Part shown: in pieces, positions 60,579-63,660 of the stretch
Numbering within the stretch: the stretch's first letter is position 1
Layout: the number at the start of each line of letters is the position of its first letter
From: Phycisphaerae bacterium
GTDB lineage: Bacteria > Planctomycetota > Phycisphaerae > UBA1845 > Fen-1342
Length of the DNA: 64,000 bases
Direction: 5' to 3'
Assembly: GCA_963675745.2 (NCBI GenBank)
Contig: CAXXWX010000026.1
Location: forward strand, 192,001-256,000
The notes under the pieces: model-generated
Told to the model about the DNA's origin: nothing
What the model saw: only the letters and a program-made list of their open reading frames with translations
Database searches by the model: none
Position numbers and translations under genes: made by a program

Positions 60579-61220
60579 TCATTCGGCCGGCGGAGGCTCT
60601 GCCGAACCCTCAGGCGCCCGGGCCGGGACAGGTTCCTTGACTGGCGCCGTCGCGCTGGTCTCAGCTTTGGCGGCGGCGGCCTCACCCGCCTCTTCCGGTT
60701 CCACAGCCACATCGTCGAACGCATTCGGCACCGGCGTCAGAACCGTCACCATGTGGCGGCCGTCCATGCTCGGGTGCCGCTCGATTTTGACCTTCTCGCC
60801 GAACTCGCTGAGGATGCTTCTGAAAATCTCAAATGCAATCTCGCGATGGAAACGCTCGCGGCCGCGAAACTGCATCGTGAACTGCACCTTGTGGCCCTGC
60901 TTGAAGAATTTGATCGCCCGATTGAGCTTGATCTTGCGATCATTGGTATCCGTCTTCGGCCGCAGACGGACCTCCTTGAGCTGCTGCTCGTGGTGCTTCT
61001 TCTGGTTCTTCTTCTGGCGGTACTTCCATTTGCCGTAGTCCATGATACGGCAGACCGGGGGGCGCGCGCTTGGCGCGACCTCAACGAGGTCCATCCCGGC
61101 TTCACGAGCACGCCGCATCGCCTCGAACGTCTCGACGATGCCGATTTGCTCGTCATTGGCACCGATGAGCCGCACTGGTGATAGACGGATCTGCTCGTTG
61201 GTACGGAGATTCTGGTTGAT
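60579..61220 (-). CDS. infC: Translation initiation factor IF-3, probable ATC start
   Basis: NEQIR, DLVEVAP, PPVCRIMDYGK, LKEVRLRP, FRGRE; SD-like GGAAGGTGA 5 nt before ATC 61220. Confidence 0.95.
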   Translation of the reverse strand: MNQNLRTNEQIRLSPVRLIGANDEQIGIVETFEAMRRAREAGMDLVEVAPSARPPVCRIMDYGKWKYRQKKNQKKHHEQQLKEVRLRPKTDTNDRKIKLNRAIKFFKQGHKVQFTMQFRGRERFHREIAFEIFRSILSEFGEKVKIERHPSMDGRHMVTVLTPVPNAFDDVAVEPEEAGEAAAAKAETSATAPVKEPVPARAPEGSAEPPPAE

Positions 61221-61239: not shown

Positions 61240-63408
61240 TCACGACAGAGTGGCAACCTCCTCGTCGACGGGCGCACTCTCAACACCACGCCGCGAGATC
61301 TCCAACGCACACGCGTGCAAAAAGTCGACCAGTTTCGCCGAACCGAGCTGCTTGCCCTCGCGCGTACGGACGTTTACACAATTTTCGGCGGCTTCCTGTT
61401 CCCCCAGCACGAGAATATAGGGCACCTTTTCCATGGTCGCGCGCCGAATCTTCGCCCCGATGCGATCGCTGCTGTCGTCCAGTTCGACACGCAGACCGGC
61501 CGCCTGACAGGCTGCAAAGACCTTGTTCGCGTATTCCTGCGACTTCTCGCTCACCGAGCAGACAACAACCTGTACCGGGGCCAGCCACATCGGAAACGCG
61601 CCGGCAAAATGCTCTATCAGAATGCCCACGAAACGCTCAAAGCTGCCCAGCGGCGCGCGGTGTACCATGATGGGTCGATGCTCGGCGTTGTCGTCGCCGA
61701 TGTAAGTCAACCCGAAGCGCTCCGGTAGATTGTAGTCGACCTGAATGGTGCCAAGCTGCCACTCGCGCTCCAGACAGTCCTTGACGATGAAATCTATCTT
61801 GGGGCCGTAGAAGGCCGCCTCGCCTTGCTCCTCGGTGTAGTGCAGACCGGCCTGACGCACGATGGCCCGCAGCGCGTCTTCGGCCTTGGCCCAGTTGGCA
61901 TCGCTGCCGATGTACTTCTCGCCGCCCGCCCCGCGCAGCCCGACGCGCACCCGGTAATCATCCAACTGCACCATCTTGAGCACGTGTTGCGCCATCTCGA
62001 CACAGCCGCGGATTTCGTCGGCGAGCTGATCAGCCGTGCAGAAGATGTGAGCGTCGTCCTGCGTAAAGCCGCGCACGCGGGTCAAGCCGTGTACCTCGCC
62101 GGACTGCTCAAAACGGTACACATGGCCGAATTCGGCCAGGCGCACCGGCAGGTCGCGGTAACTCCGCTTTTCGGACGCATAGATGCGTACGTGGTGCGGG
62201 CAGTTCATCGGCCGCAACAGATACCCATCCTCGGCTTGCAGCCAGGTGCGAATCCGTTTGAGCCGCTCCTCAACCGGAGCATTCGCCGGATAGCCGGCAT
62301 CCTTGAGATACTCGTGCTGCTCGGCCAGTTCATGAAACAACGCCAGCTCTTTGTCTGAAGCGGTCTCGCCGCCGGCCTCCAGCGCCACCTCCCACAATTC
62401 GTTGAGCCGCTCGGCGCGCTTCGACTCAAACAACGGCGGATATTGGCTGTCCTTGTAATAGGGGTAGTGGCCGCTGGTGCGATAGAGATCAAGCTTGCCA
62501 ATCTGTGGCGTATAGACCGGCTGGTAGCCGCGGCGCAAGAGCTCGCCGCGGATTTCCTCTTCGAGCGCGTGACGCAAAACGGCGCCACGTGGCTTCCAGA
62601 GCGCCAGCCCCGGGCCGACGGTCGAATCGAGCACAAAGAGGCCCAGTTCCTGGCCAATCTTGCGATGATCGCGCTTCTTCGCCTCTTCGAGTTTCCGCAG
62701 ATACTCGTTGAGCGCCTTCTTGTCGGGCCAGGTGGTGCCGTACACGCGCTGGAGCATCTGCCGGCCGGCGTCGCCGTGCCAATAGGCGCCGGCGACACTC
62801 ATGACCTTGAACGCCCCCACGTGTTTGGTGGTTGGCACATGCGGACCGCGACAGAGATCCTCGAAACACCCGCTGTTCGGTTCGCCGGTCACGTAAAAGC
62901 TGAGCACGTCGCCATCGGCGCGTTCAGCATTGTCGATCTTGTATTCGTTGCCTTCAGCGCGCAGCTTGGGCATGGCCTCATCGCGGCGCATCTCGTAGCG
63001 CGTAAACGGGCGGGCCTCCTTCACGATCTCCTTCATCTTGGCTTCGATGCGTTTGAAGTCGTCCGGCGTCAGGCTGTGTTCGAGATCGATGTCGTAGTAG
63101 AACCCGTTCTCGACCGGCGGGCCGTAGACAAGCTTGGCTTCGGGCCACAGCGCGCAGATGGCCTCGGCCATCACGTGGGCGCAGCTATGCCTGGCGACCT
63201 CGAGCCCTTCCTCGTCGCTGAGCGTCAGAGCGCGAAACTCGACCTCGGGTTCGGTGATCAGGTCGCCCATTTCCACTAGCCGACCGTTGGCCTTGGCCGC
63301 CACGGTCTGGCGCGCCAGCCCCTCGCTGATCGTGCCGACCACGTCGCGCGCGGCCACGCCGTTGTCAAACTTCAGCGACTTACCATCGGGGAGATGAATC
63401 TTTACCAT
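61240..63408 (-). CDS. thrS: Threonine--tRNA ligase
   Basis: TGS domain, RHSCAH, DLCRGPHV, RDHRKIG, RPMNCPHH, GLTRVRGFTQDDAH, AFYGPKID, HRAPLGSFERF. Confidence 0.98.
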   Translation of the reverse strand: MVKIHLPDGKSLKFDNGVAARDVVGTISEGLARQTVAAKANGRLVEMGDLITEPEVEFRALTLSDEEGLEVARHSCAHVMAEAICALWPEAKLVYGPPVENGFYYDIDLEHSLTPDDFKRIEAKMKEIVKEARPFTRYEMRRDEAMPKLRAEGNEYKIDNAERADGDVLSFYVTGEPNSGCFEDLCRGPHVPTTKHVGAFKVMSVAGAYWHGDAGRQMLQRVYGTTWPDKKALNEYLRKLEEAKKRDHRKIGQELGLFVLDSTVGPGLALWKPRGAVLRHALEEEIRGELLRRGYQPVYTPQIGKLDLYRTSGHYPYYKDSQYPPLFESKRAERLNELWEVALEAGGETASDKELALFHELAEQHEYLKDAGYPANAPVEERLKRIRTWLQAEDGYLLRPMNCPHHVRIYASEKRSYRDLPVRLAEFGHVYRFEQSGEVHGLTRVRGFTQDDAHIFCTADQLADEIRGCVEMAQHVLKMVQLDDYRVRVGLRGAGGEKYIGSDANWAKAEDALRAIVRQAGLHYTEEQGEAAFYGPKIDFIVKDCLEREWQLGTIQVDYNLPERFGLTYIGDDNAEHRPIMVHRAPLGSFERFVGILIEHFAGAFPMWLAPVQVVVCSVSEKSQEYANKVFAACQAAGLRVELDDSSDRIGAKIRRATMEKVPYILVLGEQEAAENCVNVRTREGKQLGSAKLVDFLHACALEISRRGVESAPVDEEVATLS

Positions 63409-63412
63409 GCTT

Positions 63413-63446
63413 GGCTGTTCCTCATGAGAGCAACGAGGCCCCAGCC
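63413..63446 (-). promoter_or_regulatory. Hairpin sequestering the thrS Shine-Dalgarno
   Basis: Minus strand GGCTG-GGG-CCTCGT-TGCTCTC-ATGAGG-AA-CAGCC; SD GAGG lies in the stem. Confidence 0.55.
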
Positions 63447-63549
63447 GCCGGCACTTGATTCGATGTGATGGTCGGTGGAAACGCGAAACACGCTGGAACC
63501 TCGATGATCAACTGCATAGACACACTGCCGCCCGTGGCGGGCCTCCGAC

Positions 63550-63582
63550 TCATGCTGGTGTTGTCTGTGTCAGTCGCATCAT
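63550..63582 (-). CDS. Putative thrS leader peptide MMRLTQTTPA
   Basis: SD GAAGGA 5 nt before ATG; three ACA Thr codons within four codons. Confidence 0.6.
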   Translation of the reverse strand: MMRLTQTTPA

Positions 63583-63631
63583 CTGATTCCTTCTGCTGCC
63601 GAGCGTCCCGGACAGGACGCGCTCACCGTTA

Positions 63632-63660
63632 ATAATGAGCCCATTTCGGGGGTAAGTCAA
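63632..63660 (-). promoter_or_regulatory. Putative sigma70 promoter of the thrS leader
   Basis: Minus strand TTGACT-N17-CATTAT. Confidence 0.6.

Follow-up and report, generated by a model that had tools for sequence, protein, structure and literature searches.

A predicted threonine-sensing leader peptide and a conserved chain of overlapping small ORFs ahead of thrS in one family of Phycisphaerae

The established controls of thrS are autoregulation, as in Escherichia coli, and T-boxes. The thrS gene of the Phycisphaerae genome considered here raises the question of another kind of control, as it is preceded by a short ORF with three threonine codons, which a first-pass annotation had proposed to be the sensor of a leader-peptide attenuator acting on thrS and perhaps infC. 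The window, the whole 64,000-nucleotide stretch analysed, lies on contig C26 of a 5.2 Mb genome (G000; 63.5% GC, 91% complete), and within it thrS is found between murC/murB/ddl-like genes upstream, recognized by eye from their translations, and infC downstream. Leaders were obtained from 68 of the 72 genomes of the window's own family (f1), representing 40 genera; those left out are G001 and G089 (5' part absent), G076 (contig edge), and G088 (no match). Locus L086 was also left out of the leader set, and 20 metagenome loci, several of which belong to other families, stand outside all counts. Families f6 and f3 are sister families of f1, and relative positions take the A of the thrS ATG (63408) as 0. 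The genes and the upstream part of the leader are as follows:

61240..63408, minus strand: thrS, threonyl-tRNA synthetase, 722 aa (TIGR00418, E 4.7e-201)
60579..61220, minus strand: infC (IF3; TIGR00168), start probably a non-canonical ATC at 61220
63632..63660, minus strand: predicted sigma70-type promoter, TTGACT at 63660-63655 and CATTAT at 63637-63632, spacer 17 nt
63603..63620, minus strand: hairpin at the predicted mRNA 5' end, in both MFE and centroid structures
63587..63594, minus strand: Shine-Dalgarno (SD)-like sequence of uORF1, AGAAGGAA
63550..63582, minus strand: uORF1, candidate Thr sensor, MMRLTQTTPA then stop, with 3 ACA codons, conserved in f1 and the sister families

The promoter, the 5' hairpin, the SD, and the 10-codon ORF all lie where they had first been placed. 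A TTGAC is present 160–295 nt ahead of thrS in 39 of the 40 genera, against 12% of random windows, and the family average pair map has a hairpin near -205 to -190. The ATC or ATT start of infC, with a strong SD ahead of it, is seen in most of the 22 relatives printed (L002–L030); the infC of E. coli likewise has a non-AUG start codon. In locus L002 (G025) thrS has seemingly lost its ATG through deletion of 1 nt, and a GTG in frame lies immediately ahead of it; this would be either a true change or an assembly error. After the upstream membrane-protein gene, the minus strand at 63873-63750 carries two copies of TTTTCAGTG and three of CTCTGAC, and words similar to these short repeats are found in the leader of G230.

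A rule blind to amino acid content, taking any ATG ORF of 4–14 codons that ends at -160 to -120, finds an ORF in 46 of the 68 f1 genomes and in 26 of the 40 genera, where shuffled sequences give a mean of 5.95. With Thr required within the last 4 codons, 41 of the 68 genomes and 23 of the 40 genera retain one, against a mean of 1.3 and a maximum of 4 genera in 100 shuffles. A comparison of upstream regions, of the kind proposed as a check, thus recovers the Thr-rich uORF in relatives. The expectation that ACA would be uncommon is borne out, as the genome as a whole uses it for 10.5% of its 63,561 Thr codons and thrS genes use it for 3.9%; in the blind-rule ORFs, 35 of the 51 Thr codons are ACA. 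The window genome has one tRNA-Thr(UGU) gene. In many relatives the last Thr codon adjoins the stop. A wider rule calls a leader ORF in 53 of the 68 genomes, Thr-containing in 48, and detects no Thr leader in 20 of the 68, about a third of the family. Sequence conservation therefore identifies uORF1 as a probable Thr sensor of the thrS leader, present more often than by chance. The folding stability of the leader as a whole shows no excess over shuffles (z -1.07). The short-ORF listing for this genome shows no obvious cognate leader at pheS, nor at two class I synthetases and three further ones of class II.

Two further ORFs, absent from the first-pass annotation, connect uORF1 to thrS:

63422..63553, minus strand: uORF2, 43 codons, with an in-frame internal ATG at 63517
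63402..63425, minus strand: uORF3, MRNSQAW then stop, its stop overlapping the thrS start by 7 nt

The start of uORF2 overlaps the stop of uORF1 as ATGA, and the stop of uORF2 overlaps the start of uORF3 in the same way. There is no NCBIfam match to uORF2. Across the family an ATG at -17 or -20 is present in 59 of the 68 genomes (37 of the 40 genera), and in all 59 it meets an out-of-frame stop by +6, which is so for only 393 of 835 ordinary genes of the window genome. Where codon 2 of thrS is Val and the +6 stop is required, that codon is GTG or GTA in 37 out of 37. The codons GTC and GTT, which make no stop, account for 53% of the Val codons within thrS, yet they occur as codon 2 in five cases from three genera, all in genomes where a stop at 0, -3, or -4 already ends an ORF from upstream. 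Further upstream, 36 of the 39 ATGs between -70 and -21 are in the frame of the -16 stop (20 of 23 when one is taken per genus); such in-frame internal ATGs are at -64, -61, -58, -55, -46, and -40, and their ORFs are open in 35 of 35.

The family was divided into subgroup I, which includes the window genome and has no separate internal start, and subgroup II, which has one. Of 22 subgroup I genomes, 21 have the direct relay from uORF1 intact, against 11 of the 24 genomes of subgroup II (p 0.0003 by Fisher's test, the genomes being non-independent through kinship), or 16 of 16 against 5 of 12 genera. The frame of uORF1 is fixed in 19 of the 22 subgroup I genomes and split 9/9/6 in subgroup II. 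When spacers were resampled, 10.6 of 16 were expected against 15 observed, a value reached in 0 of 500 runs. When genera are counted, the uORF2 frame is not significantly more open as such (22 versus 19 and 20 of 30). Real start codons track open frames (37 of 39 versus 5 of 14). A -1 frameshift into uORF2 at a hungry codon was considered as well and set aside, given this tracking and the absence of a slippery motif on inspection.

The -17 ATG has been lost in G002, G003, G011, G014, G061, G092, and the metagenome locus L077; in genomes without it, the upstream ORF ends at -4 to +6 instead, as judged by eye. By these comparisons, the frames, starts, and stops of the relay are under selection, with compensating changes, while the peptides are not conserved. 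The ThrRS tree, made quickly, excluded 13 of the 68 f1 genomes as too short, had rows of mixed lengths, and split rows of the same genus, and for these reasons was not used to count events.

Other causes might be proposed for the -17 ATG. Pairing of CAUG with the CAUG of the thrS start cannot be the sole one, because ATGs persist where the pairing does not and the stop would go unexplained. In the 20 genomes in which codon 2 of thrS does not start with G, the flanking pair is kept in 2 and the -15:-1 pair in 12, and the -17 ATGs remain; pairing with the thrS start codon may be a contributing cause of ATG conservation. An altered anti-SD as the cause of the conserved ATGAGG is rejected, the 16S end, and with it the anti-SD of this genome, being canonical.

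Short overlaps of this kind couple translation in the systems presented in PMC10666635 and PMC13285730, and the stop/start overlaps of the relay fit the range of -8 to +10 nt for termination-reinitiation taken from the former. The overlapping mini-ORFs thus appear, from their arrangement, to form a chain that would hand ribosomes to a locked thrS start. That the relay acts positively is suggested by its overlaps, which are of the canonical -4/-1 type, and by its retention where no Thr leader is detectable (e.g., G026, G029, G067, G094, G095).

Some loci keep the relay with a uORF1 that has no Thr codon: L088 (G080), L079 and L080 (G094, G095), and L016 (G015, where the copy is frameshifted), with peptides such as MARRIES and MHEVAQ, each then a stop. 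It is possible that the sensed amino acid has been lost or has changed at these loci. In others the sensor and relay are fused into one longer Thr-rich ORF running to the -14, +6, or -19 stop (L026 in G021, L027 in G011, L031 in G035, L102 in G083).

Control of another type can be weighed at this point, in which the small ORFs would be incidental and thrS would be governed by a T-box or by ThrRS autorepression at a tRNA-mimic operator, as in E. coli. A CUCGUU lies near the SD in the lock region of the window genome, as such an operator might have. Across the family, hairpin loops show no enrichment in anticodon-like triplets (15 of 40, against 11 in shuffles), and neither an operator nor a T-box would account for the Thr/ACA leader and the selection on frames. 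An Rfam search of the leader returned nothing at E up to 10 except a chance miRNA match, and the T-box consensus is absent. This explanation is very improbable.

Folding places the following elements between uORF1 and thrS:

63495..63590, minus strand: H1, a long hairpin whose 5' arm is uORF1 and whose 3' arm is at about 63528-63495, with 22 expected bp in the free fold
63536..63545, minus strand: post-stop strand GAGGCCCGCC, base of an alternative long stem, paired with 63446-63435 in the stalled MFE structure
63435..63446, minus strand: strand ahead of the thrS SD, GGCTGGGGCCTC
63413..63446, minus strand: lock hairpin, predicted by folding, over the uORF3 start and the thrS SD GAGG

The lock hairpin had been proposed to bury GAGG, and in the free fold the unpaired probability of GAGG is indeed 0.00. 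In most f1 genera a CCAUG:CAUGG lock core covers the SD and the start; in the window genome a longer anti-SD stem replaces it. RNAalifold on a MAFFT alignment recovers only this 8-bp core, with a covariation term of 0, so that, the sequence being invariant, the core is unproven by covariation. The thrS start costs more to open than those of 60 sampled genes (median 11.7 versus 8.8 kcal/mol), and its GAGG, at -15, is in the tail of the distribution, a position shared by 23 of 486 GAGG sites, the mode being -11.

The pairing of uORF1 in H1 is also additional to what had been described. H1 and the long stem were compared across the family by testing cognate against noncognate duplexes. For 12 subgroup II genera, this brings out both the antidiagonal of the long stem, from the post-stop strand to -54 to -10, and the competing H1; for 16 subgroup I genera it brings out mainly H1, and weakly. 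The covarying helices that had been predicted, including the pairing of the post-stop and pre-SD strands, are therefore found in subgroup II, while in the window genome the latter pairing is partial and depends on the footprint masked. With 30 nt masked upstream, the helix between 63545-63536 and 63446-63435 has 8.0 bp when the ribosome is at Thr5, 7.5 at Thr7, 2.8 at Thr8, and 0 at the stop; with 15 nt masked it mostly fails, at 5.8, 0.4, 0, and 0 bp. The pairing z-score of the post-stop strand averages -0.73 (below -2 in 10 of 53) and is +0.3 in the window genome. In the alignment of subgroup I (A2, by eye), a purine-rich SD-like word is seen in the Arg-Gly codons of uORF1, 8–11 nt ahead of the overlapping uORF2 start and buried in H1.

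In constrained folds of several genera, the base of the long stem displaces the outer lock. In a longer folding window, 17 of 48 f1 leaders show a drop of over 1 kcal in the opening cost of thrS on stalling, and 2 show a rise; in a shorter one it falls in 14 and rises in 5 of 24 in subgroup II, against 5 and 4 of 17 in subgroup I. For the window genome the shorter folding window gives 14.5 kcal/mol free, 8.5 stalled, and 9.0 at the stop, and the longer gives 13.0 versus 12.6, almost unchanged, so that the effect of stalling there depends on the folding window. It had been claimed that a ribosome stalled on the Thr codons frees the SD while one at the stop keeps it closed. The fall in cost on stalling in the shorter folding window agrees with the first half in part, as GAGG is then only 0.22–0.23 unpaired, with lock opening still costing about 10 kcal/mol; the second half is replaced by a contrast between an occupied and a released leader.

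At the internal start of subgroup II the effect of stalling runs the other way, closing 12 and opening 5 of 24. This would be expected if the relay were repressive, in the manner of ATF4 or of RBS occlusion. Ribosomes that finish uORF1 would then be led on to uORF3, and its start and second codon, the rare AGG, would hold them over the thrS SD and reset the open stem. A stall would cut the relay and free de novo initiation at thrS. In subgroup I the relay can run only after completion of uORF1, the uORF2 stop overlaps the SD, and AGG makes up 2% of the Arg codons in thrS genes, all of which would suit such a role. Both B. subtilis rtpLP and ATF4 are precedents. Close upstream RBSs are described as occluding in S. 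meliloti in PMC13285730, where overlaps of up to 13 nt were nevertheless positive. The stop that lies no more than 7 nt from the thrS ATG in 59 of 59, often as TGATG or ATGA, is a coupling arrangement, and the chain is kept in genomes without a sensor, where constant repression would be costly. A repressive relay is therefore improbable.

The direction of control can be judged from the sister families, in which 35 of the 36 genomes sampled have enough upstream DNA. A Thr ORF is called in all 35 by a permissive rule, under which two calls are doubtful, and most are clear MTRTTA-like peptides. In 34 of the 35 the Thr uORF forms the 5' arm of a long hairpin, which vanishes when the uORF is masked in the fold, and at least five U are found within 10 nt after this hairpin in 20 of 34 f6/f3 leaders, against 2 of 41 in f1. 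In L112, L129, L134, and L141 the whole attenuator is one hairpin, with the uORF inside a U-tailed terminator of about 60–90 nt. We infer that no separate antiterminator would be needed in f6/f3, as a stalled ribosome would block the terminator directly, and low Thr-tRNA would thus give readthrough. Stalling is therefore expected to turn thrS on, which is the sign that had first been assigned. In f1, H1 is built in the same manner, minus the U-tract; that no U-tract terminator is visible in the leader of the window was also correctly noted, no stretch of 8 nt having more than 4 T. By this comparison the hairpin persists in f1 without its U-tract, and the locked start and the series of mini-ORFs have been added; an ORF chain of the relay kind is patchy in f6/f3. 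In a sample from across the class, 4 of 40 leaders have at least 2 Thr in the last five codons. Thr-run leaders ahead of thrS are seen in other orders (e.g., MLNTTTQTTTTC and MSQAHTTTTTC, each then a stop) at L182 (G206), L183 (G175), L165 (G171), and L172 (G230).

The opposite sign would apply if the relay were the only feed to thrS, with stalling cutting it. A shortage of Thr-tRNA would then lower thrS-infC, in place of a stringent response. All of the selection at the coding level fits this at face value, and no RelA/SpoT domain was found in the window genome (G000, 91% complete). It would, against this, place an essential enzyme under positive feedback, the design of the sister families implies the opposite sign, and the known controls of synthetases respond to low charged tRNA by derepression. 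We consider a reversed sign most unlikely.

The loss of the U-tract also raises the possibility of termination by Rho. A Rho match is present in 71 of the 72 f1 genomes, above the cut-off in 60. Most f1 genomes have two Rho-like genes, one full and a second below the TIGR00767 cut-off that is without about the first 45 model positions; in G000 these are at C15:376117-377355 and C26:802471-803553. The skew of C over G before the SD is +0.23, positive in 32 of the 40 genera, versus -0.03. With Rho present, and with the thrS start of subgroup I showing no switch, the purely translational output that had been proposed is unproven.

Rho might even make the decision alone, with the same sign but purely in transcription, having taken over from the intrinsic terminator of the sister families. 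Release would then form H1 and expose the C-rich strand to Rho, stalling would hide that strand in the long stem, the lock would be constitutive, and the relay would be the sole route to thrS translation. This would explain why H1, a U-tailed terminator in the sister families, has no U-tract in f1, why subgroup I has no switch at the thrS start, and why the spacing of the thrS SD is poor, and it agrees with the C skew in 32 of 40 genera and the presence of Rho; uORF-Rho precedents (mgtL, corL, speFL) are given in PMC12360218. Pairing with the G-rich post-stop strand would, however, explain the richness in C equally well. In the window genome, the -65 to -18 region has no C skew (0.03) and the pairing partner of the post-stop strand is the anti-SD itself, while translation of uORF2 across the strand would shield it from Rho. 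Control by Rho alone is a possible alternative, though an unlikely one.

The best explanation of the locus, to which a probability of roughly 45% can be given, is a ribosome-sensed Thr attenuator without a terminator, together with a positive ribosome relay. When Thr-tRNA is plentiful, ribosomes would complete uORF1 and most would be released, upon which H1 would refold, the post-stop strand would be tied up, and the thrS start would stay locked; the untranslated C-rich RNA could then be subject to polarity through Rho, of the kind known from toiL-topAI of E. coli, and Rho may in this way amplify control by the lock. A minority would reinitiate through the ATGA and TGATG overlaps and melt the lock, which would sustain a basal level of ThrRS. 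Under a shortage of Thr-tRNA, mainly of the species that reads ACA, a ribosome would stall on uORF1 and H1 could not form. The post-stop and pre-SD strands would then pair in the long stem, the lock would be loosened and the C-rich strand concealed, and output of thrS and perhaps infC would rise. The sensor, H1, the locked start, and the ORF chain come from sequence and comparison, and the behaviour of ribosomes and the changes in output would follow from them. As the relay runs solely after completion of uORF1, it would run when Thr-tRNA is plentiful; with overlaps of the positive type, a relay kept without a sensor, and stalling turning thrS on, basal loading of a locked essential gene is a role that fits.

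A bolder reading, which we regard as speculative, makes the relay itself the regulatory step, in a circuit where bacterial ribosomes reinitiate along several uORFs much as at GCN4 and ATF4. Ribosomes that have proved the supply of Thr-tRNA would pass through the two mini-ORFs and then block the thrS start, which is similarly doubtful, or, less likely still, would be the sole feed of thrS. It is an equally tentative suggestion that, within a single planctomycete order, such a circuit took the place of an attenuator with an intrinsic terminator. If the relay does carry regulation, it would be a bacterial counterpart of eukaryotic uORF-reinitiation control.

On the preferred reading of an attenuator with basal relay, amino-acid-sensing leader control would be documented in planctomycetes, with one sensor having two outputs in a single order, a one-hairpin terminator in some families and a terminator-less locked start with an ORF chain in another. 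The conservation of frames, starts, and stops without that of peptides is missed by normal annotation and could be a general signature of ribosome relays in leaders. The Thr sensor alone is a modest extension of what is known; the selected relay and the change from a terminator to none are the surprising parts. An attenuation survey by Lopatovskaya (2010) reportedly lists thrS. The sections of PMC2965389 seen contain no match to thrS. In the literature searched, mostly main texts of open-access papers, there is no report of Thr-leader control in planctomycetes, nor of a sensor-initiated chain of overlapping bacterial uORFs, and the f1 ORFs could be among those in the leader-gene tables of PMC4833913.

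Classical transcription attenuators such as thrL and pheM-pheST have terminal cognate codons and competing hairpins and are derepressed on stalling. They are based on a terminator, unlike f1 (2 of 41 leaders, and none in the window genome), and differ from the f6/f3 leaders, which do have a terminator, in that the 5' arm of the latter is the uORF itself. The claim of novelty is weakened, as a leaderless 18-aa thrL with internal Thr and no U-tract is already in print upstream of thrS in S. lividans (PMC8079986). This resembles f1 in being a short Thr leader ahead of thrS without a U-tract, but the part of that paper seen describes neither a switch nor an ORF relay, and the f1 leader is SD-led, with C-terminal Thr and a bias to ACA. 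The polycysteine sORF attenuators of mycobacteria (bioRxiv 10.1101/834739), for which polarity is discussed, are closer in principle, being uORFs that sense charged tRNA with control by an occupied versus a released leader over a structure at the SD; their sensor codons pair directly with the SD region, where f1 has H1, the long stem, the lock, and two ORFs. In E. coli toiL-topAI (PMC12121999) the RBS is locked and a stall in the uORF opens it, while repression is amplified through termination by Rho within the gene; what is sensed is antibiotics rather than an amino acid, and no relay is described in the text available. The uORF attenuators of the Rho type, mgtL, corL, and speFL (PMC12360218), are derepressed on stalling, as the f1 leader is proposed to be. 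In coupled uORFs and termination-reinitiation overlaps (PMC13285730, PMC10666635, PMC4833913, and Salmonella mgtQ in PMC8092293), a small overlapping or RBS-melting ORF promotes translation. Those systems, in the portions of the papers seen, have single uORFs, whereas f1 has a conserved chain of two or three steps that leads from an amino-acid sensor.
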